The notes below the pieces were generated by a model. That model was not told the DNA's origin and did not search any database. It saw nothing but the letters and a program-made list of their open reading frames with translations. From a virus (taxonomy: Duplodnaviria; Heunggongvirae; Uroviricota; Caudoviricetes), in the IMG/VR virus record IMGVR_UViG_2563366978_000001: 47,048 nt of DNA, one strand, 5' to 3'. Each line of letters begins with the position of its first letter. The first letter of the stretch is position 1. The position numbers were made by a program, and so were the translations under genes. Below are positions 149 to 46,592 of the stretch, one piece after another.

Positions 149-2050
149 ATGAGCAAAGTAAAAATCGGTGAATTAATAAACTCACTTGTTAGCGATGTTG
201 AGTCAATAGATAACTCTGACCGTCCTCAAGGGGAGAAAACAAAAAAAATAAAGGCTGTTGCATTAAAATTTAAAAATGCATTATTTAATGACAAGCGAAA
301 GTTTAGGGGGAAAGGATTAGAAAAAAGAATTACAGCCAACACATTCAATGCCTATATGAGCAGGGCCAGAAAACGGTTTGATGATAAACTTCATCATAGC
401 TTTGAAAAAAATATACATCGCCTATCTGAAAAGTATCCTTTATATAATGAGGAGCTATTGTCATGGCTTTCTCTACCTGCTGCCGATATTCGCCAGAGAA
501 TGTCAGCTTTACAGGCAAAATTAAAATTAATTCTCCCTCTATCAGAAGATTTATCTAATATCAGAATTGGCGATAACAAAAGTCATAATAAGTTATTGAA
601 ATTATCAAATAAATATAAAGAGTGGCAATTCGCCATTTCTGATTTAACTAGCGATAACTGGAAAGATAAGCGCGATTATTTATATAAATTACTACAGCAA
701 GGATCTGCCTTACTTGAGGAGTTGAATCAGCTAAAAGTTAACCATGAGATTCTCTATCATCTTCAACTAAGCCCTGCCGAACGTGCATCTATCCAGCAAC
801 GATGGGCGGACGTTCTGCACAATAAGAAACGTAACGTGGTGGTCATTGATTACCCTAAATATATGCAAGCTATTTACGATATTATAAATAGCCCTGCTAC
901 ATTAAATAATCTAAACACTCGTTCAGGTATGGCTCCTTTGGCATTTGCACTTGCTGCATTGTCAGGAAGACGAATGATTGAGATTATGTATCAAGGTACA
1001 TTTACTGTTTCTGGTAAGTATACCGTTGATTTTTTAGGCCAAGCTAAAAAAAGAACTTCTGATAATATAACCAGAAAAATATATACATTATGCGAAGCAA
1101 AAACATTTGTTTATTTAATAAATGTACTTCGCTCATGCCCAGCAGCATCTGATTTTGATGATGTCGTTAAAGGTTATGGAGATAACGACACACGCTCTGA
1201 AAACGGACGTATTAATGCCATATTAGCAAAGGCTTTTAACCCGTGGGTTAAATCATTTTTCAAAGATGACCGCCGTGTTTATAAAGATAGTCGTGCTATT
1301 TATGCCCGTATTGCGTATGAAATGTTTTTCCGCGTAGATCCTCGTTGGAAAAACGTAGATGAAGATGTTTTCTTTATGGAAATTTTAGGCCATGACGATG
1401 AAAACACTCAATTACACTATAAGCAATTCAAGCTGGCCAACTTCTCAAAGACATGGAGGCCAAATACTGGAAACGAAAATACCAGGCTGGAAGCATTGCA
1501 GCAGCTTGATGACGAAATGCCTGGATTCGCCAGAGGAGATGCCGGGGTTCGTCTGCATAACACAGTTAAGCAGCTGGTAGAGCAGGACCCCTCTATAAAA
1601 ATCACGAACAGCACTCTAAGAGCGTTCAAATTTAGCCCAACAATGATTAGTCGATACCTGGAATTTGCTGCTGATGCTCTGGGGCAATTTGTTGGCGAAA
1701 ACGGACAATGGCAACTGAAAATAGATACTCCAGAAATCGTTATGCCTGACGAAGAAGAACTGGAAGCAATACCTGAACTGGCGGATGAATTATCAGAGGA
1801 TGACGATCTGGATGACGACGAAATTGAGATAGAGGAAGAGGAAGAGGAAGAGGAAGATAGCGTAGAAGAACAGCAACCGCCTGCACCTTCTTCGCCTGTA
1901 TCTAAGCCGGTATTTAAGCCGGTGAGAAATATTGGTGATGGCTCATACGTTGTTGAGTTTCATTATAATGGCCAGAATTATGCGTGGTCCGGCAGTGCAA
2001 ACAGCCCCATGTCAGCAATGCAGTTAGCATGGCTGACATATTTCGGTTAA
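149..2050 (+). CDS. telN: Protelomerase (telomere resolvase), N15 TelN-like, 633 aa
   Basis: 633-aa ORF with RBS AGGAGAGG upstream; length, N-terminus and acidic C-terminal tract match my memory of N15 TelN; sits next to the telomere end as in N15. Confidence 0.9.
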   Translation: MSKVKIGELINSLVSDVESIDNSDRPQGEKTKKIKAVALKFKNALFNDKRKFRGKGLEKRITANTFNAYMSRARKRFDDKLHHSFEKNIHRLSEKYPLYNEELLSWLSLPAADIRQRMSALQAKLKLILPLSEDLSNIRIGDNKSHNKLLKLSNKYKEWQFAISDLTSDNWKDKRDYLYKLLQQGSALLEELNQLKVNHEILYHLQLSPAERASIQQRWADVLHNKKRNVVVIDYPKYMQAIYDIINSPATLNNLNTRSGMAPLAFALAALSGRRMIEIMYQGTFTVSGKYTVDFLGQAKKRTSDNITRKIYTLCEAKTFVYLINVLRSCPAASDFDDVVKGYGDNDTRSENGRINAILAKAFNPWVKSFFKDDRRVYKDSRAIYARIAYEMFFRVDPRWKNVDEDVFFMEILGHDDENTQLHYKQFKLANFSKTWRPNTGNENTRLEALQQLDDEMPGFARGDAGVRLHNTVKQLVEQDPSIKITNSTLRAFKFSPTMISRYLEFAADALGQFVGENGQWQLKIDTPEIVMPDEEELEAIPELADELSEDDDLDDDEIEIEEEEEEEEDSVEEQQPPAPSSPVSKPVFKPVRNIGDGSYVVEFHYNGQNYAWSGSANSPMSAMQLAWLTYFG

Positions 2051-5406: not shown

Positions 5407-5598
5407 TTACTCCCCGTTCACCGAAAATTCACGATAGAAACGTTTCCACATACGATAAGTCTGCGCAAATTGTTCACCACGAAACATCGCCTTCCTGGCC
5501 TTCATGTTTTCCTTGTGAGACTTTCGGTCTATGAACCAAAACCATTGATGGAACACACAAAGCAAGAGACACAAAGATAATATCCAATCATTACCCAT
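5407..5598 (-). CDS. Small hypothetical membrane protein, about 63 aa (MGNDWILSLCLLLCVF...)
   Basis: In-frame ATG at 5596-5598 just beyond the repA stop; the longer track ORF would overlap repA. Confidence 0.4.
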   Translation of the reverse strand: MGNDWILSLCLLLCVFHQWFWFIDRKSHKENMKARKAMFRGEQFAQTYRMWKRFYREFSVNGE

Positions 5599-8500
5599 AG
5601 AAAGCGCCCTGCTCTTCGTAGCTGCATGAGCTATTCCCCGTAATGTATTCACGTAACCGCCGCAGCTCATTGCTGGAAAGGTGATCCATGAACTCTGTGA
5701 GGTACAGGGATGCAAACGTCATAGCTATGCTGGCTGATGACCATGATGACATAGTGGCCAACTCCTCACTGGAAAGCGCACTCATCGCCCAGGACTCAGG
5801 TACAGCCACTGGCAACACGGCCAAAGCCTCAGAAATTACTGAATGAGGGGCGTTTTGAACCTGCTCGTTTGTGGATCGCGTTTTATCATCCATATATATA
5901 TTGAGATCCAAATCGCGATCCATTTCGATGGCTGTCTTCTCGGCTTTACGCGTTTTTAGGGTTAGGCCATCTTTCTGACGCTGAACAAGAATATCCAGCA
6001 TAAATGCCGCTGATTCAGGCTCAACAAAACGCAAGGTTGGACGCTTATCGCCGTCTCTGCCGCGACGTTTACCTGTTTTAAGGCCAAGAGAGTCGCAAAT
6101 GTTTTTAAACAACGCTTCCGGCACTTTAGGCTTCCCTTTTGGCGTCATAAAACCACCAATGTGCAGAACGTTATTCAACAGGTCACGGCGTTCGGCTGTC
6201 ATGAGGTTATCTCGAGCGAATTTGAGACGCTCCTGAGTCGCCTCGCCGGTCATAGTCTCAGGGTTGATACCGCAGTCGATAAAGTACTGCCGGAGAGTTG
6301 CTGATTTAAGCGCATAGAAACCGCGCGCCCCGACTTCAACAGTAGGAGTAGCTTTTACCTTGTGATCGATTATTCCAGGGAATTTAGTTTTAAAGACATC
6401 ATCAGCCTGCTCGCGAGTCATCGCGGTCACTACAAAATATTGCCACTGTCCCGCCTGACGGTATGTGTAGGTAAAATTGATGGCTGCTTCTTCCCGGTCG
6501 TAACGACGAGCTGTTACCTCATCTAAAAGCATTGTTTCATAGCGGCGAACTTTGTCTCGAGCACCATCGAAATAGAATTTCAGCGTGCCTTCTTCAACCG
6601 GTAGTTTCAGTTCGTTTTCAATATCCCAGCGGACAAGTTTTGCCTGTTCTTCAAGCGTCAGCGCGCGTTTTTTTAGCAGTTCTTCACGCTCTGATTCTTG
6701 TGGTGTTTCTGTATTGAGGTGCAGATCCAGTGTCTGTTCCCACACAATATCCCGCGCTTCTTTACGCAGATCTTTACCGATATCATTCGCAGCATAATCG
6801 GTGGCCAGCGGTGATACCTTATAACCGTCGCTGTGCATGATGCAGATCATGTTGCTGGCGTAGTCGTTACGCGCAGTCGCTTCAATTGCGGCTGCTTTAA
6901 TTTTCATCCTGGTAAAGTCGGTATTGGCCACCCCCATTGATATACGGTCGCCATCGAAAACGACATCCGTAAGTTCACCGTTCATACCTGCGGTAGCAAG
7001 CAATGCCTGGGCGAATGCTCGTTCTATTTTTTGCGGGTCAGTTTCACGTTTTGCACGAGCTTTATCAAAGCCGATAATAAATTCTTTTGCTGTACGGTCG
7101 CGGCGTAGCATTTGCACTGCATCACTGGGTACAACTTCACCACAGAACATGCCGAAATGACGGTCAAAATGTTTTTGCTCAATCGACACGCCGGATGAAA
7201 TAGACGGGCTATAAATCAGGCCGTCGTATTTTTTGACCATCTTTTTCGGTTGATTGGTAAATGCTTCAACTTCTGGCTCTGGTTTGTTTTTCTGGTTTAC
7301 ACACAGAAATTTCTTACCAGGAAAATGCATTCTCAGGGTGGCTGTCACATCTTCTGCAAAGGTGGAGCTGTCGGTGGCCAACATGATTTTTTCGCCATCC
7401 GATACAGCTTTCACCACCTCGGTCATGATGCGATCTTTTTCTGTATAAAAAACCCGGATTGGCTCACCTGTTTCGCGGTTGCGAACATCAACAGGTAATT
7501 CAATTACGTGGATCTGCAGCCATGCCGGTAAACCTAGTTCTTCACGGCGTTTCATAGCCAGTTCAGCCAGGTCAACCAGCAGATCGTTCGCATCAGCATC
7601 CACCATGATTGGGTGTTGTTCCGTTCTGGCCAGCGCGTCAATTAGCGTATTGAATACAGCCACCGGGTTTTCCATAGCCCGACCGGAAAGAACGGCACGT
7701 AGCCCTTGTGTGGCCTCGTCAAAGCCAAAATAGTCGTGCTGGCGCATCAACGGTTGCCAGCAGTTTTTAACAATCGAGTTTATGCAGATGGTCAGTTTAC
7801 TGGCGTATGGAGCCATTTCCTGATAGCCAGGGTCCTGATAGTGCAGGATATCGGTTTTTACACCTTTTCCTTCTGTCATCATTTCCCACAGGCCACCAAT
7901 AAGGGAAACACGGTGAGCAACAGAGATACCACGTTCTGAGCTATGCATTAAAGGTCGTAACAATCCAGTAGATTTGCCGGAACCCATACCAGCACGAACG
8001 ATGACTATCCCCTGTAGTGATTGCACATACTTCAGGACGTCATCGGTCATTACCGAAGTTTCAAGACGCTTATAGGTGATATGTTGAGGACGTTTATTGG
8101 GATCAGTTATGCGTTCGCTGAATGAGCGCGGAGCCTGGGCAATACGGCACTTTTTATTCAGGCGACGGGCAATGTGGTCTTTTACCGTAGCGCGATAGAT
8201 ATTTTCCAGCCCCATTTCACGCAGAACGATGCAGAACATGTTAAATAAGTCTGACGGACTGTTAGGAACCGGACAGGTTAGCATGCCAATATCCACCGCT
8301 CTCAGCAGCTCTTTGGCAAAAGTACGACGGTTATCCCGCTTAATTGTCTTCAGGCGGTTGAGCGTCAGAGATAGCAAATCAGTGCCGGTTTTCAGGCGGT
8401 TTGCAGTTGCAAACAGTTGACGTGCTGTTTCACGAAGTCCACGCAGTTTGTGCAGGTCGTTGAAGTCACTGCACTCCATTTGCGGATCGTCTTCAAAAGT

Positions 8501-9586
8501 TGGATAGACGCAGCGGACATCGTTGAATTTCGATAAGATTTCATAGCCAGTCCGCAGGCCGGTATTCCCTTTTCCTTCTGTGGCTGATTTCCGGTCATTA
8601 TCCAGTGCGCAGGTGATTTTTGCCGCCGGGTACATGTTTACCAGTTGTTCCACAACATGAACCATGTTATTAGCGGATACAGCGACAACCACAGCGTCAA
8701 AGCGTTTATCTTTTTTCGTGGCAAGCCAGATGGATGCACCAGTAGCAAAACCTTCTGTAACAGCGATGTTTTGCGCCCCTTTTAGCTCACCGATAACAAA
8801 GCAGGCACCGACGAAATCGCCGCTGGTTACGGCGCTGGTCTGGTATTTTCCACCTTGTTTGTCGATTCGCTGCCAACCCACAATACGACCATCGTAACGA
8901 CCGTCCAGGTGAGCCAGAGGGATAGCCATATACGTGGTTGGCCCCCTGCTCCATTTTGCGCTGTCGTGACTGGTCACGCGACGCACATCACACGAATTAA
9001 AAACGTCACGAATACCTTTTTTAATCGCATATGGCCATGAGCCGTCTTCTGCAGGAGCATGTTCCCACGCGCTGTGGAATGCCAGCCATCCCAGCAAACG
9101 TTCATGGTCCATTTGGTTGTTTTTCAGGTCATTAATTCGTTTTTGTTCTTCACGGCGACGACGTGCTTCGGCCTGACGTTCTATTCTTGCCCGTTCTTCT
9201 TCCGGTTGTGCGACCACGGTCGCATTATTCCGTTGTTGCTCACGGCGATATTCAGAAAACAGGAAGGAGAAACCGCTCCATGAGCCAGCATCGCTGCCTT
9301 TATGGACGAAGTTAATGAACGGGTAATCAATCCCTTTGCTGTGTTCCAGCCGGGAGTAAATTTCTACGCGTCCTTTGAGGCTCTTTTCGAGAGCTTCTGG
9401 AGATGTTTTATTGTATGAAGAGTAACGCTCAACACCCCCGCGAGGGTTGAGTTGGATGTTGTCGGAACAGGCAGACCAGTTGATACCAGCCATCTGTGCC
9501 AGCTCGGTTAGTTCATCCCGTGCTGCTTCAATTAGCGAGAACGGATCGCTGCCAAAGCGATCCGCATAGAAATCGTTTAATGTCAT
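5591..9586 (-). CDS. repA: Replication protein RepA (primase-helicase), 1331 aa
   Basis: Single ORF of N15 RepA size (about 1324 aa from memory) in the N15 position between immunity region and telN side. Confidence 0.9.
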   Translation of the reverse strand: MTLNDFYADRFGSDPFSLIEAARDELTELAQMAGINWSACSDNIQLNPRGGVERYSSYNKTSPEALEKSLKGRVEIYSRLEHSKGIDYPFINFVHKGSDAGSWSGFSFLFSEYRREQQRNNATVVAQPEEERARIERQAEARRRREEQKRINDLKNNQMDHERLLGWLAFHSAWEHAPAEDGSWPYAIKKGIRDVFNSCDVRRVTSHDSAKWSRGPTTYMAIPLAHLDGRYDGRIVGWQRIDKQGGKYQTSAVTSGDFVGACFVIGELKGAQNIAVTEGFATGASIWLATKKDKRFDAVVVAVSANNMVHVVEQLVNMYPAAKITCALDNDRKSATEGKGNTGLRTGYEILSKFNDVRCVYPTFEDDPQMECSDFNDLHKLRGLRETARQLFATANRLKTGTDLLSLTLNRLKTIKRDNRRTFAKELLRAVDIGMLTCPVPNSPSDLFNMFCIVLREMGLENIYRATVKDHIARRLNKKCRIAQAPRSFSERITDPNKRPQHITYKRLETSVMTDDVLKYVQSLQGIVIVRAGMGSGKSTGLLRPLMHSSERGISVAHRVSLIGGLWEMMTEGKGVKTDILHYQDPGYQEMAPYASKLTICINSIVKNCWQPLMRQHDYFGFDEATQGLRAVLSGRAMENPVAVFNTLIDALARTEQHPIMVDADANDLLVDLAELAMKRREELGLPAWLQIHVIELPVDVRNRETGEPIRVFYTEKDRIMTEVVKAVSDGEKIMLATDSSTFAEDVTATLRMHFPGKKFLCVNQKNKPEPEVEAFTNQPKKMVKKYDGLIYSPSISSGVSIEQKHFDRHFGMFCGEVVPSDAVQMLRRDRTAKEFIIGFDKARAKRETDPQKIERAFAQALLATAGMNGELTDVVFDGDRISMGVANTDFTRMKIKAAAIEATARNDYASNMICIMHSDGYKVSPLATDYAANDIGKDLRKEARDIVWEQTLDLHLNTETPQESEREELLKKRALTLEEQAKLVRWDIENELKLPVEEGTLKFYFDGARDKVRRYETMLLDEVTARRYDREEAAINFTYTYRQAGQWQYFVVTAMTREQADDVFKTKFPGIIDHKVKATPTVEVGARGFYALKSATLRQYFIDCGINPETMTGEATQERLKFARDNLMTAERRDLLNNVLHIGGFMTPKGKPKVPEALFKNICDSLGLKTGKRRGRDGDKRPTLRFVEPESAAFMLDILVQRQKDGLTLKTRKAEKTAIEMDRDLDLNIYMDDKTRSTNEQVQNAPHSVISEALAVLPVAVPESWAMSALSSEELATMSSWSSASIAMTFASLYLTEFMDHLSSNELRRLREYITGNSSCSYEEQGAFYG
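5873..5922. other. Candidate replication origin inside the 3' part of repA: 8-bp inverted repeat GGATCGCG/CGCGATCC around an AT-rich core with three GATC sites
   Basis: Direct reading; N15-type origins are reported within the 3' part of repA (from memory). Confidence 0.3.
9209..9224. repeat. sopC-like palindrome TGCGACCACGGTCGCA (inside repA); putative centromere site
   Basis: 16-bp core of the palindrome family repeated five times in the window. Confidence 0.55.
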
Positions 9587-36224: not shown

Positions 36225-39200
36225 ATGGGTAAAGGCAGCAGTAAGGGGCATACCCCGCGCGAAGCGAAGGACAACCTGAAATCATCCCAGATGCTGAGCG
36301 TGATAGACGCCATCAGTGAAGGGCCGGTTGAAGGTCCGGTGGACGGATTAAAAAGTGTGCTGCTGAACAGTACGCCAGTGCTGGACAGTGAGGGGAATAC
36401 CAATATCTCCGGTGTCACGGTGGTGTTCCGGGCAGGTGAGCAGGAGCAGACACCGCCGGAGGGATTTGAATCCTCCGGCTCCGAGACGGTGCTGGGTACG
36501 GAAGTGAAGTACGACACGCCGATTACCCGGACCATCACGTCTGCAAACATCGACCGTCTGCGCTTTACCTTCGGTGTGCAGGCACTGGTGGAAACCACCT
36601 CAAAGGGGGACCGGAATCTGTCGGAAGTTCGCCTGCTGGTTCAGATACAGCGTAATGGTGGCTGGGTGACGGAAAAAGACATCACCATTAAGGGCAAAAC
36701 CACCTCACAGTATCTGGCCTCGGTGGTGGTGGATAACCTGCCGCCGCGCCCGTTTAATATCCGGATGCGCAGAATGACGCCGGACAGCACCACAGACCAG
36801 CTGCAGAACAAAACGCTCTGGTCGTCATACACCGAAATCATCGATGTGAAACAGTGCTACCCGAACACGGCACTGGTCGGCGTGCAGGTGGACTCGGAGC
36901 AGTTCGGCAGCCAGCAGGTGAGCCGTAATTATCATCTTCGCGGGCGCATTCTGCAGGTGCCGTCGAACTATAACCCGCAGACGCGGCAATACAGCGGTAT
37001 CTGGGACGGAACGTTTAAGCCAGCATACAGCAACAACATGGCCTGGTGTCTGTGGGATATGCTGACCCATCCGCGCTACGGCATGGGGAAACGTCTTGGT
37101 GCGGCAGATGTGGATAAATGGGCGCTGTATGTCATCGGCCAGTATTGCGACCAGTCGGTGCCGGATGGCTCTGGCGGCACGGAGCCGCGCATCACCTGTA
37201 ATGCGTACCTGGCCACACAGCGCAAGGCGTGGGATGTGCTCAGTGATTTCTGCTCGGCGATGCGCTGTATGCCGGTATGGAACGGGCAGACGCTGACATT
37301 CGTGCAGGACCGACCGTCGGATAAGGTGTGGACCTATAACCGCAGTAATGTGGTGATGCCGGATGATGGCGCGCCGTTCCGCTACAGCTTCAGCGCCCTG
37401 AAGGACCGCCATAATGCCGTTGAGGTGAACTGGATTGACCCGAACAACGGCTGGGAGACGGCGACAGAGCTTGTGGAGGACACGCAGGCCATTGCCCGTT
37501 ACGGTCGTAACGTCACGAAGATGGATGCCTTTGGCTGTACCAGCCGGGGGCAGGCACACCGCGCCGGGCTGTGGCTGATTAAAACGGAACTGCTGGAGAC
37601 GCAGACCGTGGATTTCAGCGTGGGTGCTGAAGGGCTTCGCCATGTACCGGGCGATGTCATTGAAATCTGCGATGATGACTATGCCGGTATCAGCACCGGT
37701 GGTCGCGTGCTGGCGGTGAACAGCCAGACCCGGACGCTGACGCTCGACCGTGAAATCACGCTGCCATCCTCCGGTACCACGCTGATAAGCCTGGTTGACG
37801 GAAGTGGTAATCCGGTCAGCGTGGAGGTTCAGTCCGTCACCGACGGACTTAAGGTGAAAGTGAATCGGGTTCCTGACGGCGTTGCAGAATACAGTGTGTG
37901 GGGGCTGAAGTTGCCGACGTTGCGTCAGCGCCTGTTCCGCTGTGTGAGTATCCGTGAGAACGATGACGGCACGTATGCCATCACTGCCGTGCAGCATGTA
38001 CCGGAAAAAGAAGCCATCGTGGATAACGGGGCGCACTTTGACGGCGACCAGAGCGGCACGGTGAATGGTGTCACGCCGCCAGCGGTGCAGCACCTGACCG
38101 CCGAAGTCACCGCAGACAGCGGGGAATACCAGGTGCTGGCGCGCTGGGATACGCCGAAGGTGGTGAAGGGCGTGAGCTTTATGCTTCGCCTGACCGTGGC
38201 AGCGGATGACGGCAGTGAGCGGCTGGTCAGCACGGCCCGGACGACGGAAACCACATACCGCTTCAGGCAGCTGGCTCTGGGAAATTACAGTCTGACAGTC
38301 CGGGCGGTAAATGCGTGGGGGCAGCAGGGCGATCCGGCGTCGGTATCGTTCCGGATTGCCGCACCGGCAGCACCATCGCGGATTGAGCTGACGCCGGGCT
38401 ATTTTCAGATAACCGCCACGCCGCATCTTGCGGTTTATGATCCGACTGTACAGTTTGAGTTCTGGTTCTCGGAAAATCGGATTGCGGATATCAGGCAGGT
38501 TGAAACCAGCGCGCGTTATCTTGGCACGGCGCTGTACTGGATAGCCGCCAGTATCAATATCAAACCGGGCCATGATTATTATTTTTACGTTCGCAGTGTG
38601 AACACCGTCGGCAAATCGACATTCGTGGAGGCTGTCGGCCGGGCGAGCGATGATGCGGAAGGTTACCTGGATTTTTTCAAAGGCCAGATAACCGAATCCC
38701 ATCTCGGCAAGGAGCTGCTGGAAAAAGTCGAGCTGACGGAGGATAACGCCAGCAAACTGGAGGAGTTCTCGAAAGAGTGGAAAGACGCCAACGATAAATG
38801 GAATGCCATGTGGGGTGTCAAAATTGAGCAGACCGAAGACGGCAAACATTATGTCGCGGGGCTTGGCCTCAGCATGGAGGATACAGAGGAAGGCAAACTG
38901 AGCCAGTTCCTGGTTGCCGCTAACCGTATCGCGTTTATTGACCCGGCAAACGGGAATGAAACGCCGATGTTTGTGGCGCAGGGCAACCAGATATTCATGA
39001 ACGAAGTGTTCCTGAAGTATCTGACGGCTCCCACCATTACCAGTGGCGGCAATCCTCCGGTATTTTCCCTGACACCGGACGGGCGGCTGACGGCGAAAAA
39101 TGCCGATATCAGCGGTAACGTGAATGCGAACTCCGGGACGCTCAATAATGTCACGATTAACGAGAACTGTCGGGTTCTGGGAAAACTGTCCGCGAACCAG

Positions 39201-39620
39201 ATTGAAGGCGATCTCGTTAAAACAGTGGGCAAAGCTTTCCCCCGGGACTCCCGTGCACCGGAGCGGTGGCCATCAGGGACTATTACCGTCAGGGTTTATG
39301 ACGATCAGTCGTTTGACCGGCAAATTGTTATTCCAGCGGTGGCTTTCTGCGGTGCCAGACATGAGCGGGAGAATAGCGATACTTATTCGTCATGCCGCCT
39401 GATAGTGAAGAAAAACGGGGCTGAAATTTATAACCGAACGGCTCTGGATAATACTCTGATTTACACGGGTGTTATTGATATGCCTGCAGGCAGTGGTGTA
39501 ATGACACTGGAGTTTTCTGTATCAGCATGGTGGGTAAATGGTTGGTATCCCACAGCAAGTATCAGCGATTTGCTGGTTGTTGTGATGAAGAAAGCCACTG
39601 CAGGCATCAGTATCAGCTGA
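36225..39620 (+). CDS. J: Central tail fibre / host specificity protein J
   Basis: 1131 aa, lambda gpJ-like. Confidence 0.95.
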
Positions 39621-39687: not shown

Positions 39688-40287
39688 ATGCGTAAATTAT
39701 GTGCTGTTATTCTGTCCGCAGTAGTCTGGCTGGTTGCCGCTGGTACGCCAGCGAGCGCAGCAGAGCATCAGTCCACACTAAGCGCCGGGTATCTTCAGAC
39801 CCATACTGATATGCCAGGCAGTGATGACCTGAAGGGCATTAACGTGAAATACCGTTATGAATTTACGGACACGCTGGGGCTGGTGACGTCATTCAGTTAT
39901 GCCAATGCCAAAGATGAGCAAAAAACGCATTACAGCGATACCCGCTGGCATGAAGATTCCGTGCGTAACCGCTGGTTCAGCATGATGGCGGGGCCATCTG
40001 TACGCGTGAATGAATGGTTCAGTGCTTATGCGATGGCGGGTATGGCTTACAGCCGTGTGTCGACCTTCTCCGGGGATTATCTCCGCGTAACTGACAACAA
40101 GGGGAAAACGCACGATGTGCTGACCGGAAGTGATGACGGTCGCCACAGCAACACGTCTCTGGCGTGGGGGGCTGGCGTGCAGTTTAACCCGACCGAATCC
40201 GTGGCCATTGACCTTGCTTATGAAGGTTCCGGCAGTGGTGACTGGCGCACTGACGGTTTCATCGTGGGTGTCGGTTATAAATTCTGA
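39688..40287 (+). CDS. lom: Outer membrane protein Lom (Ail/Lom family)
   Basis: Signal peptide; C-terminus AYEGSGSGDWRTDGFIVGVGYKF matches lambda Lom. Confidence 0.9.
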   Translation: MRKLCAVILSAVVWLVAAGTPASAAEHQSTLSAGYLQTHTDMPGSDDLKGINVKYRYEFTDTLGLVTSFSYANAKDEQKTHYSDTRWHEDSVRNRWFSMMAGPSVRVNEWFSAYAMAGMAYSRVSTFSGDYLRVTDNKGKTHDVLTGSDDGRHSNTSLAWGAGVQFNPTESVAIDLAYEGSGSGDWRTDGFIVGVGYKF

Positions 40288-40313: not shown

Positions 40314-40341
40314 AGCCCGCCGGTTCAGGCGGGCTTTTTTG
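40314..40341 (+). terminator. Intrinsic terminator after lom (AGCCCGCC-GGTTCA-GGCGGGCT then T6)
   Basis: Stem-loop plus T-tract. Confidence 0.65.
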
Positions 40342-40351
40342 TGGAGTGGAT

Positions 40352-42727
40352 ATGGCAGCAGTAAAAATCTCAGGTGTGCTGAAAGATGGTGCGGGAAAAC
40401 CAATACAGAACTGCACTATTCAACTGAAGGCAAAGCGTAACAGCACCACGGTACTGGTGAACACGGTGGCCTCTGAAAATCCTGATGAAGCCGGGCGTTA
40501 CAGTATGGACGTTGAGTATGGTCAGTACAGCGTCATCCTGTGGATTGAGGGTTCTCAGCCATCACATGTTGGGACCATTACCGTCTATGAAGGTTCCTGT
40601 CCGGGGACGCTGAATGATTTTCTCGGTGCCATGACGGAAGATGATGTCATGCCGGAGGCATTGCGCCGTTTTCAGGAAATGGTGGAAGAAGCGGCACGCA
40701 ACGCCGAAGCCGCCTCTCAGAGCGCAGCGGCGGCAAAGAAATCCGAAACTGCAGCGGCATCATCGAAGAACGCGGCGAAAACCTCAGAAACGAATGCAGC
40801 TAACAGCGCACAGGCGGCAGCGACCTCACAGACTGCATCGGCAAACTCCGCGACAGCAGCCAAAAAATCAGAAACCAACGCGAAAAACAGCGAGACAGCC
40901 GCAAAGACGAGCGAAACCAACGCAAAGTCCAGCCAGACGGCAGCGAAAACCAGCGAAACGAATGCCAAAGCCAGTGAAACTGCGGCGAAAAGCAGTCAGG
41001 ATGCAGCAGCCGAAAGCGAGAGCGCGGCAGCTGGTTCTGCGACTTCAGCTGCTGGATCAGCAACTGCTGCGGCTAACAGTCAGAAAGCAGCGAAGACGAG
41101 TGAAACTAACGCAAAGTCCAGCCAGACGGCAGCGAAGACCAGCGAAACGAATGCCAAAGCCAGCGAAACTGCGGCGAAAAGCAGTCAGGATGCAGCAGCC
41201 GAAAGCGAGAGTGCTGCAGCTGGTTCTGCAAGCGCGGCTGCTGCTTCTGCCACTGCATCAGCTAACAGTCAAAAAGCAGCAAAAACCAGTGAAACCAACG
41301 CAAAGGTGAGCGAAACAGCGGCTGCGAACTCAGCGAAAGCATCGGCAGCAAGCCAGACGGCAGCTAAAGCAAGCGAAGATGCAGCCAGAGAGTACGCAAG
41401 CCAGGCTGCGGAGCCGTATAAATATGTCTTACAGCCGCTGCCTGATGTGTGGATACCATTTAACGATTCGCTGGATATGATTACGGGCTTTTCGCCGTCA
41501 TATAAAAAGATTGTTATTGGTGATGATGAAATAACGATGCCTGGCGACAAGGTTGTTAAGTTTAAACGCGCATCGAAAGCAACCTATATTAATAAATCTG
41601 GTGTGCTGACAGAGGCTGCCATTGACGAGCCACGGTTTGAACGTGATGGCCTGCTTATTGAGGGGCAAAGAACGAACTACATGCTCAATTCGGAAAGCCC
41701 TGCCAGTTGGGGGCGATCGTCAAATATGGATGTTCCCGAAACCGGGACGGATAGTTTTGGTTTTACCTATGGAAAGTTCGTCTGTAACGATTCTCTGATT
41801 GGGCAAACCTCAGCCATTAATATGGCATCAATTGCTGCAACAAAGTCAGTTGATGTCTCAGGCGATAATAAACACGTGACAACCTCATGTCGTTTTAAAA
41901 CAGAACTGCAGGTAAGGTTGCGTATCCGGTTTGATAAATATGACGGTAGCGCAACAACTTTTCTTGGTGATGCGTATATTGATACACAAACGCTTGAAAT
42001 TAATATGACAGGCGGTGCTGCCTCAAGGATTACAGCGAGAGTCAGAAAGGACGAAGCTACCGGATGGATTTTTGCAGAGGCAACAATTCAGGCAATTGAT
42101 GGGGAGTTAAAAATAGGCTCTCAGATACAGTATTCTCCTAAGCAGAGCGGGGCAACCGTATCTGGTGACTATATTTATCTGGCCACCCCACAAGTAGAAG
42201 ATGGGCCTTGTGTATCATCTTTTATTATATCAGGAGCGACGGCGGCGACCCGCGCAAGCGATATAGTTACAGTTCCAATTAAGAATAATCTTTATAAGAT
42301 TCCTTTTACGGTTCTTTGTGAGGTACATAAGAACTGGTATAAAACGCCAAATGCAGCGCCACGTGTTTTTGATACCGGCGGTCATCAAACCGGAGCGGCT
42401 ATTATTCTTGGCTTCGGTCGTTCAACAGATTACGACGGATTTCCTTATTGCGATATTGGAGGAGCTAACAGACGGGTAAACGAAAACGCATCGCTTGAAA
42501 AAATGGTTATGGGGATGCGTGTAAAGTCAGAGCAGTCTACGTGCTCAGTAAGTAACGGGCATATATCCAGCGAAACAAAAACCACATGGTCCTGTATTCA
42601 GAACACCGCAATTATCCGTATTGGAGGCCAGACTACAGCCGGGTTACGTCATTTATTTGGTCATGTCAGGAATTTCAGAATATGGCACAAGGCATTGACT
42701 GATGCTCAGGTGGGGGAGTCAATCTAA
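40352..42727 (+). CDS. stf: Side tail fibre: lambda Stf-like N-terminus, repetitive Ala/Ser/Thr-rich shaft, different C-terminal receptor-binding domain (LamG-like motif NFRIWHKALTDAQV)
   Basis: N-terminal about 120 aa match lambda Stf; internal 189-bp tandem repeat; C-terminus unlike lambda. Confidence 0.8.
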   Translation: MAAVKISGVLKDGAGKPIQNCTIQLKAKRNSTTVLVNTVASENPDEAGRYSMDVEYGQYSVILWIEGSQPSHVGTITVYEGSCPGTLNDFLGAMTEDDVMPEALRRFQEMVEEAARNAEAASQSAAAAKKSETAAASSKNAAKTSETNAANSAQAAATSQTASANSATAAKKSETNAKNSETAAKTSETNAKSSQTAAKTSETNAKASETAAKSSQDAAAESESAAAGSATSAAGSATAAANSQKAAKTSETNAKSSQTAAKTSETNAKASETAAKSSQDAAAESESAAAGSASAAAASATASANSQKAAKTSETNAKVSETAAANSAKASAASQTAAKASEDAAREYASQAAEPYKYVLQPLPDVWIPFNDSLDMITGFSPSYKKIVIGDDEITMPGDKVVKFKRASKATYINKSGVLTEAAIDEPRFERDGLLIEGQRTNYMLNSESPASWGRSSNMDVPETGTDSFGFTYGKFVCNDSLIGQTSAINMASIAATKSVDVSGDNKHVTTSCRFKTELQVRLRIRFDKYDGSATTFLGDAYIDTQTLEINMTGGAASRITARVRKDEATGWIFAEATIQAIDGELKIGSQIQYSPKQSGATVSGDYIYLATPQVEDGPCVSSFIISGATAATRASDIVTVPIKNNLYKIPFTVLCEVHKNWYKTPNAAPRVFDTGGHQTGAAIILGFGRSTDYDGFPYCDIGGANRRVNENASLEKMVMGMRVKSEQSTCSVSNGHISSETKTTWSCIQNTAIIRIGGQTTAGLRHLFGHVRNFRIWHKALTDAQVGESI

Positions 42728-43008
42728 TGAAAGATTTAACACTCAAATTTGCCGACAGGGCCGACTTTTCGGCCTTTATGGATAGCACTGGCTATTATGA
42801 TGACGAGTCGATGCAGGATGATATTCTTATTGACGTGATAGGTAACGTGTACAAAGAAACCGGAGAACTGACTGAAGATGGCGAACCGGTATGTGTTAAG
42901 GAAGACGGATATTTTGTAAACGTGCGCATCATTAATGATTCGCAAATATCGTCATTATTCGATGAATACGTGGTTGCTGTTGAGCATCAACTTCGTGGCT
43001 GGATGTGA
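42727..43008 (+). CDS. Hypothetical acidic protein, 93 aa, between the two fibre genes
   Basis: ORF coupled to the stf stop. Confidence 0.45.
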   Translation: MKDLTLKFADRADFSAFMDSTGYYDDESMQDDILIDVIGNVYKETGELTEDGEPVCVKEDGYFVNVRIINDSQISSLFDEYVVAVEHQLRGWM

Positions 43009-44436: not shown

Positions 44437-45426
44437 TTAGTTATTTTTTACATCGGAAGAATTTCCAAACGCCTCCTCAAGAATAGATTCAATTTTACTC
44501 ATTAGGTGCGATGGTATTTTTCTGTTATCTAATTTTAATGTTGTGAAATTTTTCCCATATTTCGCCACAACACCGTCTCCATATTTCTTTTCCCTTTTCT
44601 CTCCATGTGAATTGTTTTTCTCAACAATAATGAAATCATGAAGAGCCTGTATTATTCTTTGCGCATCTAAACTTTCACCTGATTTTTTCATCCTCAGCAA
44701 CTGAGATGCAGCATTTTTCATGGCTGCTTCCTGTCCCTGATATGCTTTAAAAAGAGCGTCTCCTGCTCTGGCTGATAACTCACCAGGATGGTTAAATATT
44801 GCCAATATATCTTTAGGTAAACCGGCTGTATTAATACATCGGCTGATAATATTTCTATCCACGCCTTCGGCTTCAGCTAAAGATTTTACGTTACCGTCAA
44901 ATTCATGGAGCCTTCGCAGGTATCTTTTCCCCCTTTCATAGGCGCTGATAGGTCTATAGTCGTTGCCTATCTGCGATAACCATTGCATTTGTTCATCATC
45001 TAAATCGCCAATAAGAACACGATAATCGCATCCAGTTATAATGGCTGCTTTACGTCTTCGAGAACCATCAGCTACTTCAACAATACCTGACACTTTTCTT
45101 GCGAAAGCCGGATTTTGTTGCCCAGAAGTTAGAAAAGATGGAATTAAATCAGCTAGAGAAGATTCATTTAATAAATCTTGATCACGCTCATTACCTAGCC
45201 ATACCATTGTTGCCATTTCTACTTTATCTGCGGGGATCGTTTCTAACTTAAAGTTAACATTACGTCCGCATACTGGCAAAGTTATGCTATTACCGGTTAA
45301 TGAACTCAGTTGACGTTTTAAATCACCAACCATAGGTGATACCGGCTGATGTTCAGGTGCATGATGATTATTACTCATAATGCGATTAATATCCGGAGCA
45401 TTTTTTAGAAGAGAGCGTTGTTTCAT
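44437..45426 (-). CDS. sopB: Partition protein SopB (ParB family)
   Basis: 329 aa; conserved block ITLPVCGR...SGNERDQ...DGSRRRKAA...GNDYRP as in F SopB. Confidence 0.95.
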   Translation of the reverse strand: MKQRSLLKNAPDINRIMSNNHHAPEHQPVSPMVGDLKRQLSSLTGNSITLPVCGRNVNFKLETIPADKVEMATMVWLGNERDQDLLNESSLADLIPSFLTSGQQNPAFARKVSGIVEVADGSRRRKAAIITGCDYRVLIGDLDDEQMQWLSQIGNDYRPISAYERGKRYLRRLHEFDGNVKSLAEAEGVDRNIISRCINTAGLPKDILAIFNHPGELSARAGDALFKAYQGQEAAMKNAASQLLRMKKSGESLDAQRIIQALHDFIIVEKNNSHGEKREKKYGDGVVAKYGKNFTTLKLDNRKIPSHLMSKIESILEEAFGNSSDVKNN

Positions 45427-46592
45427 TCTTCGTTCTCCCAGCGAGGTTTTATTAGATCATCAAAAATTTCTCGACAAACAGGGTCCCATATAGAGACGGC
45501 ATTTCTCCATGCATTAAGTGTTGAACGCTGGTTTGCCGCTTGTTCAAATACTGTTCGCATTTTTATCTGACCTTTACCTACTTCATCGGTAACGCGTACA
45601 ACCTGACGTAATACCATTGATCCCCATGTATTTCTTATTTGCTCTTCCATCCATCGTGATTGATTTCCTGTAGTGAGACTATATTTAGTCAGAAGCAAGC
45701 GAACGGTCGGCTCAAATCCGCCTAGGTCAACGCTTTCTAGGAGATCGAGAAGCATTGTGAAAAACTGTAGAACAGAGGCGTAATCAAATAATTCTGCAGG
45801 GGTAGCAACAACGATAACGTCAGCTGCGCAAACAACGTTAATGGTTCCTGTACCGAGGTTTGGAGCACTATCTATAACGATAACATCGTAGTTATCCCAA
45901 ACTGATTCTATAGCTGCGCGTAGCATCAGGTGAGGAGGGTGAGGCAATTTACCCTGAGCATGATATTGCATGAGATCTGTTTCTATACGGTGTAAAGCTA
46001 GGCAGCTAGGAATAATGTCCAGTCCAGGCCAGCATGTTGGTTTTATAGCATATTCAGCGTTATCGCGTTCGCCCAAGTAAAATGGCAGTAAAGTATCCTC
46101 GGCATGTATATGTAAATCAGGTACATAACCGTGATACATGGAGGCTGTTCCCTGAGGATCGTTACCTTCAACTAAAAGAACACGATGACCTTGTAATGCT
46201 AGCCATTGTGCCTGATGTACTGCAGACGATGTTTTATAAACGCCGCCTTTGTGTGACATAACAGCAAGCACAACTGGGTTTTTATCTTGTGGCCGTTGGT
46301 TTGGGTTGCCAAAAACAGCTCGCATACTATTGATTTGATCTATGGTATAACCGGCACGACGTTCAACTCTTCCTCTCATTTCAAAGTCAGGTGCAGGTAA
46401 ACGCCCGTTCTTCTCAGCATCTCTTATTGCTTGAGGAGTTACACCAATTAAATCTGCTACTTCAGTTATCCCCCATCTACGCGTGATACGCCGAGCTTCA
46501 GGACTATCATCACCGAATTGAGCTATAGCAATTGCTTGGGTCATTTCTTGACCGCGCGTAACACAATCTTGTAATAACTTTTTCAAAGACAT
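45423..46592 (-). CDS. sopA: Partition ATPase SopA (ParA family)
   Basis: 389 aa; Walker A KGGVYKTS and long blocks identical to F SopA. Confidence 0.95.
   Translation of the reverse strand: MSLKKLLQDCVTRGQEMTQAIAIAQFGDDSPEARRITRRWGITEVADLIGVTPQAIRDAEKNGRLPAPDFEMRGRVERRAGYTIDQINSMRAVFGNPNQRPQDKNPVVLAVMSHKGGVYKTSSAVHQAQWLALQGHRVLLVEGNDPQGTASMYHGYVPDLHIHAEDTLLPFYLGERDNAEYAIKPTCWPGLDIIPSCLALHRIETDLMQYHAQGKLPHPPHLMLRAAIESVWDNYDVIVIDSAPNLGTGTINVVCAADVIVVATPAELFDYASVLQFFTMLLDLLESVDLGGFEPTVRLLLTKYSLTTGNQSRWMEEQIRNTWGSMVLRQVVRVTDEVGKGQIKMRTVFEQAANQRSTLNAWRNAVSIWDPVCREIFDDLIKPRWENEE

Follow-up and report, generated by a model that had tools for sequence, protein, structure and literature searches.

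The window analyzed here is the whole 47,048-nt stretch of DNA of IMG/VR virus record IMGVR_UViG_2563366978_000001, from an N15-like E. coli phage, and it carries a tandem repeat inside the side tail fibre gene, stf (Table 1). The ATG start codon of stf lies 7 nt downstream from a GGAG sequence and is also the start annotated in relatives. The full-length protein covered 793 of the 793 positions of the phrog_1419 "tail protein" profile (1479 bits), a profile corresponding to the two-unit form present in the window. The N-terminal region (aa 5–134) matched PF08400 (phage_tail_N, E=1.3e-63), and its collar matched the solved structure of lambda Stf residues 2–94 (PDB 9e7m, E=3.6e-46), with a beta-sandwich predicted by AF2 at aa 6–80. 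The gene is preceded by the gpJ domains (36225–39620) and Ail/Lom (39688–40287). These matches, together with the location after J and lom, confirm the initial annotation of the gene as a side tail fibre gene; lambda (Ur-lambda) gpStf has a nearly identical collar, and its gene occupies the same position after J and lom. However, gpStf of lambda has a T4 gp37-like OmpC-binding tip, whereas the distal domain in the window is of the GTA head-spike-fibre-like type. Profile searches with the distal part of Stf and the downstream ORF identified no T4 gp37-like tip with a downstream Tfa. The ORFs between stf and sopB encode a 93-aa product matching only phrog_1361 (function unknown) and not Tfa, a further fibre bearing an S74 chaperone, and a 100-aa product; the first two stand where lambda has Tfa. 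Since the distal region matches NF048003 and no Tfa match was obtained, we regard the protein, on these profile matches, as belonging to Stf in its attachment domain and its shaft but carrying a different distal module.

Table 1. Coordinates of stf and of the features in and over its shaft (window numbering)
Feature	Position	Strand	Remarks
stf (side tail fibre gene)	40352–42727	+	791 aa from ATG; mechanical ORF from GTG 40346
Stf N-terminal collar (attachment) domain and linker	40358–40747	+	aa 5–134
Arg-rich 222-aa ORF	40641–41309	+ (+1 frame)	50 Arg; spans the entire shaft; judged spurious
Heptad shaft	40688–41401	+	aa 115–352; ~33 unbroken heptads, consensus A-A-K/A-x-S-E-T
Two antisense ORFs	40717–40968 and 40800–41063	-	judged spurious; substitution pattern follows stf
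Repeat unit 1	40886–41074	+	63 aa, nine heptads; Tandem Repeats Finder, unit alignment
68-nt core of unit 1 (unit positions 34–101)	40919–40986	+	free of fixed differences to the core of unit 2, 41108–41175
Unit-2 states within unit 1	40987–41001	+	diagnostic string 111111 2222 11111...; outer bounds 40919–41007
Repeat unit 2	41075–41263	+	63 aa; Tandem Repeats Finder, unit alignment
Partial third unit, 42 nt (NSQKAAKTSETNAK)	41264–41305	+	sequence diverges beyond; Tandem Repeats Finder copy number 2.2
Stf distal domain, GTA head-spike-fibre-like fold family	41654–42256	+	aa 437–637; NCBIfam NF048003, E=2.5e-13

The shaft consists of Ala, Ser, Thr, Lys and Glu, with Ala at position 2 in 30 of the 33 heptads and Ser at position 5 in 31 of the 33, and at the nucleotide level it is composed throughout of similar 21- and 42-nt sub-repeats. 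It aligned with lambda orf-401 (60% identity over 285 aa), and the same heptad composition and AAKTSETNA motifs were found in both proteins, whereas the near-identical 63-aa pair of the window had no counterpart in the lambda shaft, as judged from the alignment only. In lambda, residues 102–393 have been interpreted as the proximal trimeric coiled coil on the basis of cryo-ET and AlphaFold3 modelling rather than of an atomic map of the shaft (PMC12617516). The shaft in the window corresponds to this region of lambda Stf. AF2 predicted helices at aa 104–227 and 237–354, with a break at aa 228–236, in a monomer model whose confidence was modest (mean pLDDT 59; 60–74 in the shaft), and the shaft is alpha-helical, presumably with a trimeric coiled-coil fold. 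A core built from Ala and Ser is unusual in coiled coils and counts against this fold, as do the helix break and the modest confidence of the monomer model. The N-terminal shafts of Klebsiella-type depolymerases (PDB 7vyv, 7vz3 and 7lzj) share an AKTSE(D/T)NAKSSE motif over ~48 residues, but this match is weak (E ~3e-3) and does not extend beyond the heptads; the remainder of the protein is unrelated.

Tandem Repeats Finder identified a period of 189 nt at 40886–41305 (87% matches, 0% indels, score 658), and a separate repeat search recovered a 189-nt pair with 85% identity. The two full units lie head-to-tail and in frame in stf and are identical at 166 of 189 positions (88%); the 128-nt cores given in the initial annotation (40916–41043 and 41105–41232) are identical at 121 of 128 positions (94.5%) and are spaced by exactly 189 nt. 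The longest perfect run between the units is 47 nt (40976–41022), only 19 of the 63 codons differ, and synonymous positions are common to both. An 18-mer repeated at 189-nt spacing occurred once in the window and in none of 100 dinucleotide-preserving shuffles. The in-frame tandem repeat and its repeated peptide, both reported in the initial annotation, were recovered: a stretch of 47 aa occurs twice, starting at aa 186 and at aa 249 in the mechanical ORF (nt 40901–41041 and 41090–41230), and the coordinates first given start 15 nt inside this peptide, a trivial offset. The repeat is real, yet it is an ordinary trait in a family of phage proteins that is already known.

The Arg-rich and antisense ORFs overlapping the shaft had been attributed to the repeat. 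They are spurious, because 91 of the 123 polymorphisms across the shaft fall on stf codon position 3, but the composition of the whole shaft, in which stf codon position 2 lacks T, rather than the duplication, is their cause. The frame of the Arg-rich ORF contains only one stop across the shaft, and this ORF had no PHROG match. The antisense ORF at 40717–40968 matched phrog_560 (function unknown) and resembles orf206b, which is annotated in antisense in the corresponding Stf region of lambda.

The Stf proteins of 2G7b, HannyBb, Tritos, PhiR63_1 and the prophage of E. coli 04-00955 have the same full-length architecture, with both units (96.7–98.7% nt identity). In a comparison with six two-unit relatives, unit 1 of the window shared 94–96% identity with theirs, and unit 2 was 95–96% identical to that of HannyBb, 2G7b, ev207 and PhiR46_1 (89% for the truncated unit 2 of PhiR47_1). 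Across phages, complete units showed identities of 94–98% for unit 1 with unit 1 and 95–97% for unit 2 with unit 2, against 83–88% between the two units of the same genome. The grouping of the units by position across phages in these alignments shows the in-frame duplication to be old. Twenty-four diagnostic sites separate unit 1 from unit 2, and none of them lies at unit positions 34–101; this 68-nt core, which includes invariant runs at unit positions 45–62 and 64–80, contains not one fixed difference between the units, synonymous sites included. In the window, a run of unit-2 states within unit 1 adjoins the core and represents a short gene-conversion tract. This patch distinguishes the window from E. 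coli prophage and lambdoid/N15-like Stf alleles, and it accounts for the slightly greater similarity of its units (0.88) with respect to the median u1–u2 identity (0.84) of 120 IMG/VR loci (81 distinct arrays), in which patches run in both directions. Conversion patches flank the core directly.

Copy number differs between relatives, as anticipated in the initial annotation, with one, two and three units observed among homologous loci. With identical anchors, 104 two-unit and two one-unit contigs were identified in IMG/VR, and the test for three units in the same collection yielded one contig against at least 120 with two units. Variants therefore account for ~2% or less of IMG/VR contigs, a frequency resting on exact-match anchors in a redundant collection composed mostly of E. 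coli isolates, and the flank anchors miss phage IdasGreatGrand and the three-unit contig owing to anchor polymorphisms. The shaft of IdasGreatGrand is exactly 63 aa shorter and has a single unit. In protein clusters, with shaft length taken between the ALRRF anchor and the first Pro, the shaft was shorter by exactly 63 aa in seven of 120, and another two clusters with a single unit had further deletions. The length variants sharing the shaft end of the window differed mostly by whole heptads (-7, -14, -28, -49 and -105 aa), with a few singleton clusters at -4, -12, -30 and -41 aa for which the end anchor is the first proline. Relatives have RRFEAM or RRFEEM where the window has RRFQEM.

The variant units are chimeric. 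The left halves of the single units had one or two mismatches to unit 1, and their right halves had 0–3 mismatches to unit 2, versus 14–17 to unit 1. Each of three single units was closest to a different two-unit allele, and the one-unit events therefore appear to be independent. The three-unit contig (IMGVR_UViG_2541047862_000009, hereafter L010), found by an IMG/VR search for a motif occurring three times at 189-nt spacing, has an intact ORF. The left half of its extra unit is nearest to unit 2 (one versus six mismatches) and the right half to unit 1 (four versus 18 mismatches), so that this unit is the reciprocal of the unit1-left/unit2-right arrangement of the one-unit alleles. The crossovers of L010, L131 and L132 all map within the 68-nt core interval, which is likely to be the crossover zone. 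Such reciprocal chimeras fit the signature of unequal crossover, although replication slippage would give the same sequence outcome. The variant alleles were obtained from draft assemblies, in which errors are possible in principle; yet the units are 12–16% apart and the chimeras are clean. About 970 E. coli genomes carry the array. A synthetic three-unit query could not single out three-unit loci among E. coli genomes, as two-unit loci cover 100% of it through overlapping pieces, and the best 25 E. coli rows all span 939–941 nt. With a synthetic junction of unit-2 end and unit-2 start, no single-piece match exceeded 93.8%; this result carries little weight, as the normal junctions would survive a simple unequal crossover.

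Several other readings of the locus were considered. The sub-repeats of the shaft, with an identity of ~0.5 at in-register lags everywhere, could suggest resemblance at the level of low complexity or heptads with no true higher-order duplication. However, the identity of the 128-nt core at lag 189 is 0.945, against a mean of 0.49 and a maximum of 0.63 at the 28 other in-register lags (in steps of 21 nt between -210 and +399) and values of 0.43 or less out of register. This lag comparison, the self-comparison proposed with the initial annotation, rules out the low-complexity reading and establishes a true 189-nt repeat; the 47-nt perfect run, the small number of differing codons with synonymous positions in common, and the presence in relatives of both units, each orthologous to its counterpart at that position, leave that reading a negligible probability. 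Any duplication must begin from one unit, and the one-unit form might thus be ancestral, with the single-unit alleles as relics rather than contractions, at a locus that is not currently dynamic. The partial third unit begins in the same way as unit 2 (NSQKAAKTSETNAK), so that the left-hand unit-1 states of single-unit alleles are those that an ancestor would show as well. Nevertheless, the right halves of the single units lie within three mismatches of existing unit-2 haplotypes and far from any unit 1, and each single unit matches a different two-unit allele, whereas an ancestral unit would be expected to lie midway between the two. The reciprocal hybrid in the three-unit allele and the conversion patches in both directions, indicative of ongoing exchange, also argue against relics, and we consider this origin very unlikely.

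Programmed variation is well known from tail fibre genes, as illustrated by Mu Gin, P1 Cin and the Bordetella phage DGR, and in one relative, HannyBb, the fibre genes are followed downstream by a DNA invertase. The array could in principle be a programmed high-frequency device (a contingency locus, or an invertase or DGR target) switching fibre length within the population. However, its units are 12% diverged and position-stable across many phages, and length variants are rare among the contigs; high-frequency length variation with near-identical units was not found. No invertase or reverse transcriptase domain was detected in the ORFs between stf and sopB, and the repeat search revealed no inverted repeats flanking the array. 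Such a device is extremely improbable. As for the identity of the core, selection acting on some overlapping element, whether an RNA structure or one of the ORFs, rather than gene conversion, would explain the lack of fixed unit differences even at synonymous sites, and one of the antisense ORFs does have a PHROG match. Nonetheless, the polymorphisms track the stf frame, the overlapping ORFs are low-complexity mirror translations, of which the one with a match belongs to a family without assigned function and resembles lambda orf206b, and mosaic patches adjoin the core in both directions, as conversion predicts. There is thus very little to be said for an overlapping element.

We therefore favour, with a probability of about 0.8, an old in-frame 189-nt tandem duplication in the Stf shaft, with a core kept by conversion and with a copy number varied by rare misaligned recombination. 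Recurrent short-tract gene conversion would hold the 68-nt core identical in both copies, and misaligned homologous recombination, or replication slippage, within this core would give rise to the rare one- and three-unit alleles. As the unit comprises a whole number of heptads (63 = 9 x 7), the coiled-coil register would be kept on gain or loss of a copy. Each such change would shift the proximal shaft length, by an estimated ~9 nm per unit (63 residues at ~0.15 nm each), leaving the N-terminal collar and the distal receptor-binding part undisturbed, and unit number may in turn influence adsorption. The suggestion that the repeat is an expansion and contraction hotspot holds in so far as the chimeras fit unequal crossover, but in a relative sense only, as the two-unit state is old and strongly predominant.

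Coding tandem repeats of fibrous proteins, including tail fibre shafts, evolve in a minisatellite-like manner, by unequal crossover and gene conversion. The array shares with them head-to-tail in-frame units, reciprocal chimeras and the concerted evolution of a core, but it is not hypervariable; variation is rare here because there are only two units, 12–16% diverged outside the core. Sandmeier, in 1994, reportedly dealt with motif rearrangement in tail fibres, and the work of Haggard-Ljungquist et al., in 1992, reportedly bears on this evolution as well. Our literature search on Stf repeats or heptad duplications returned nothing specific to them. The change in copy number by unequal recombination does occur, but it is nothing unusual among phage tail fibres, and the protein family is already known; the practical value of the finding is small, and no new mechanism or system is revealed.

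The locus nevertheless shows why gene callers give Arg-rich and antisense ORFs over Stf shafts, and repeats of this kind could contribute to assembly breaks inside stf. It also provides a register-preserving nine-heptad module with natural one-, two- and three-copy alleles in the same receptor-binding background, which might be a convenient handle on the relationship between side-fibre length and adsorption in engineered lambdoid/N15-like phages. We consider it doubtful, though conceivable, that the two-unit length is a molecular ruler under stabilising selection and that the rare alleles are adaptive adsorption or host-range variants rather than neutral accidents. If this were the case, the two-unit shaft would set the reach of the side fibre to match either the central gpJ fibre or the depth of the surface layer of the host, and the core kept by conversion would allow the phage occasional fibre steps of ~9 nm in either direction.

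Tandem Repeats Finder detected a period of 189 nt over 40886–41305 (2.2 copies, 87% matches, no indels), and the 189-nt pair was also recovered by a second repeat search of the window. The initial annotation had reported a 189-bp in-frame tandem repeat in the side tail fibre gene (stf), and this repeat is confirmed at the location described: the near-identical cores (40916–41043 and 41105–41232) are offset by 189 nt, in frame, with 121 of 128 positions identical, and the 47-residue peptide quoted is encoded twice (nt 40901–41041 and 41090–41230). Self-comparison gave an identity of 0.945 at lag 189, versus at most 0.63 elsewhere (28 other in-register lags: mean 0.49, maximum 0.63; out-of-register lags: up to 0.43). 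An 18-mer recurring at 189-nt spacing was found in none of 100 shuffles, and this result and the lag comparison rule out mere low complexity. Taken as whole units with their natural boundaries, the two copies are identical at 166 of 189 positions and match without interruption for up to 47 nt.

Coordinates of the repeat units, stf, its neighbours and other genes in the window, with one related locus
Feature	Coordinates	Strand	Remark
unit 1	40886–41074	+	natural boundary
unit 2	41075–41263	+	natural boundary
partial third unit	42 nt, after unit 2	+	end of the tandem array
stf ORF	40346/40352–42727	+	downstream of gpJ and lom
gpJ	36225–39620	+	upstream of lom and stf
lom	39688–40287		between gpJ and stf
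93-aa ORF	42727–43008	+	unknown function (phrog_1361); start overlaps stf stop
second fibre, 346 aa	43018–44058	+	after the 93-aa ORF; C-terminal Peptidase_S74 intramolecular chaperone
protelomerase	149–2050	+	all four TelK domains
RepA-like protein	5591–9586	-	large primase/origin-binding
SopB and SopA/ParA partition genes	44437–45426, 45423–46592	-	
antisense ORF over the shaft in locus L009	648–1268	-	listed with the window antisense ORF for its likeness to phrog_560/orf206b

The units of the window were compared with those of six phages that have two units and of IdasGreatGrand, which has one. Unit 1 was 94–98% identical across phages and complete unit 2 was 95–97% identical (87–89% for PhiR47_1, in which unit 2 is truncated), whereas units 1 and 2 of a single genome shared only 83–88% identity; the duplication is therefore older than the compared phages rather than having arisen recently in the window genome. 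The two units are distinguished by 24 sites, none of which falls in unit positions 34–101; this 68-nt core contains runs of 18 and 17 nt that are invariant in all 13 units examined. In the window, four diagnostic sites in a row within unit 1 (40987–41001) have the unit-2 state, with unit-1 states on either side; this is a short conversion tract, and it explains the high identity noticed initially. Across 120 IMG/VR loci (81 distinct arrays), the identity between units had a median of 0.84 (range 0.70–0.89), and patches with the states of the other unit adjoined the core in both directions. This amounts to concerted evolution confined to the core.

One-, two- and three-unit alleles were found among relatives. 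The shaft of IdasGreatGrand is exactly 63 residues shorter, as it is in 7 of 120 protein clusters homologous to Stf; two further single-unit clusters have extra deletions, the remaining clusters have two units, and no three-unit shaft was found among the 120. With identical flank anchors, 104 IMG/VR contigs had two-unit spacing versus 2 with one-unit spacing, and a search of IMG/VR for the core motif at 189-nt spacing yielded three units in one contig (L010, IMGVR_UViG_2541047862_000009) versus at least 120 for two. Three single units each had a left half close to unit 1 (1–2 mismatches, versus 4–8 to unit 2) and a right half close to unit 2 (0–3, versus 14–17 to unit 1), and the closest two-unit allele differed among the three. 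The extra unit of L010, which lies within an intact ORF, has the reverse arrangement, with unit 2 nearest in the left half (1 versus 6 mismatches) and unit 1 nearest in the right half (4 versus 18). Both types are the reciprocal products that misaligned exchange within the core should generate, and the events, no fewer than three contractions and one expansion, were independent. The locus, described initially as an expansion/contraction hotspot, does therefore expand and contract, but the term overstates the case, since alleles with other unit numbers are rare and two units are the dominant state.

Other length differences among alleles with the shaft end of the window were mostly whole heptads (-7, -14, -28, -49 and -105 aa); a few singleton clusters at -4, -12, -30 and -41 aa were obtained by the first-proline end anchor only. 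In locus L078, 49 aa are missing and NAKASETAA of unit 2 is joined to the unit-3 continuation, and in L005 (PhiR40_1) the loss is 105 aa, which leaves no 63-aa unit complete; both deletions run from one sub-repeat to another and, although the register differs, remove whole heptads. In several phages and prophages the match to stf breaks off abruptly, either at about 41242 (query position 897), close to where unit 2 ends (41263), or at about 41607–41691 (query ~1262–1346), which suggests a recombination joint at the end of the shaft, where different distal modules are exchanged.

The Arg-rich and antisense ORFs, attributed by the initial annotation to the repeat, are spurious, as a comparison of the shaft with four relatives puts 91 of the 123 differences at stf codon position 3, with synonymous codon changes outnumbering non-synonymous ones by about 3:1, but their cause is the composition of the whole shaft. 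In its codons T is absent from position 2 and scarce at position 1, so the +1 frame contains a single stop in 700 nt and a 222-aa Arg-rich ORF extends over the whole shaft, beyond the duplication alone. The shaft antisense ORFs (83–93 aa) are best interpreted as artefacts that this composition creates in annotation. One of them (40717–40968, minus strand) resembles the annotated antisense orf206b of lambda and matches phrog_560, of unknown function, so a family in the databases seems to be made up of Stf shafts translated in mirror image. A 674-aa antisense ORF wholly inside gpJ (36825–38849, minus strand) is probably a further compositional artefact. The initial interpretation of the repeat was essentially right, with the hotspot claim and the cause given for the spurious ORFs overstated.

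The window represents a telomere phage, or linear plasmid-prophage, of N15-like type, and Escherichia phages YDC107_1 and PhiR46_1 are the closest phage records. Its two-unit allele family is abundant: among 5,426 complete genomes of E. coli, 969 cover 80% or more of the array region. Most database homologues of Stf (P0001–P0120) are flagged "partial", their contigs ending inside stf, which is consistent with short-read assemblies breaking in a multi-copy, repeat-containing prophage gene.

Attachment domain, gene position and shaft all place Stf in the lambda Stf family. Its N-terminus hits PF08400 (prophage tail fibre N-terminal domain) with E=1.3e-63 and matches PDB 9e7m, the solved collar domain of lambda Stf (E=3.6e-46); the match to phrog_1419 is full-length (793/793 positions). 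Translation probably starts at the ATG at 40352, which has GGAG 7 nt upstream and is the start annotated in relatives. A strong terminator-like hairpin between lom and stf (40314–40335, plus strand; 8 pairs, 7 G-C, then TTTTT) ends only ~6 nt before the ribosome-binding site, so stf expression would need read-through or antitermination. Lambda Stf has a T4 gp37-like tip, whereas the distal part in the window (41654–42256, plus strand) has no gp37-like match and instead hits the gene transfer agent family "phage head spike fiber domain" (NCBIfam NF048003). Unlike in lambda, where tfa follows stf, no recognisable tfa was found downstream; the 93-aa ORF and the second fibre are both kept in relatives.

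Residues 115–352 of Stf form ~33 uninterrupted heptads (consensus A-A-K/A-x-S-E-T), with Ala at position 2 in 30 of 33 and Ser at position 5 in 31 of 33, and the 63-residue unit is exactly nine heptads, made of 7- and 14-residue sub-repeats (21- and 42-nt periods). In Ur-lambda, a cryo-EM/cryo-ET study divides gpStf into a collar domain (residues 1–91), a flexible linker, a proximal trimeric coiled coil (residues 102–393), a hinge and a distal domain (PMC12617516). Given this layout and the alignment of the shaft segment with lambda orf-401 (60% identity over 285 residues), the repeat can be placed in the proximal coiled-coil shaft, which we infer to be trimeric, with ~9 nm per unit (63 residues x ~0.15 nm, standard helix geometry). 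An AF2 monomer model (20-sequence alignment, mean pLDDT 59) predicted helix at aa 104–227 and 237–354. The sole break, aa 228–236 (41027–41053), coincides with the two Gly-containing heptads closing unit 1 (AAAGSAT SAAGSAT) and may mark a flexible point or be an artefact of the monomer folding back on itself; the unit 2 equivalent has one Gly and is helical in the model.

The same heptad motif, AKTSE(D/T)NAKSSE, is present near the N-termini (residues ~130–176) of the solved phage depolymerases PDB 7vyv, 7vz3 and 7lzj, and the shaft module is therefore shared more widely than among lambdoid side fibres. A search of the literature on Stf repeats and heptad duplications found no paper describing the 189-nt unit. 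Tandem motif duplication and recombination are established in tail fibre shafts, and a duplicated shaft unit is an ordinary feature for a phage tail fibre.
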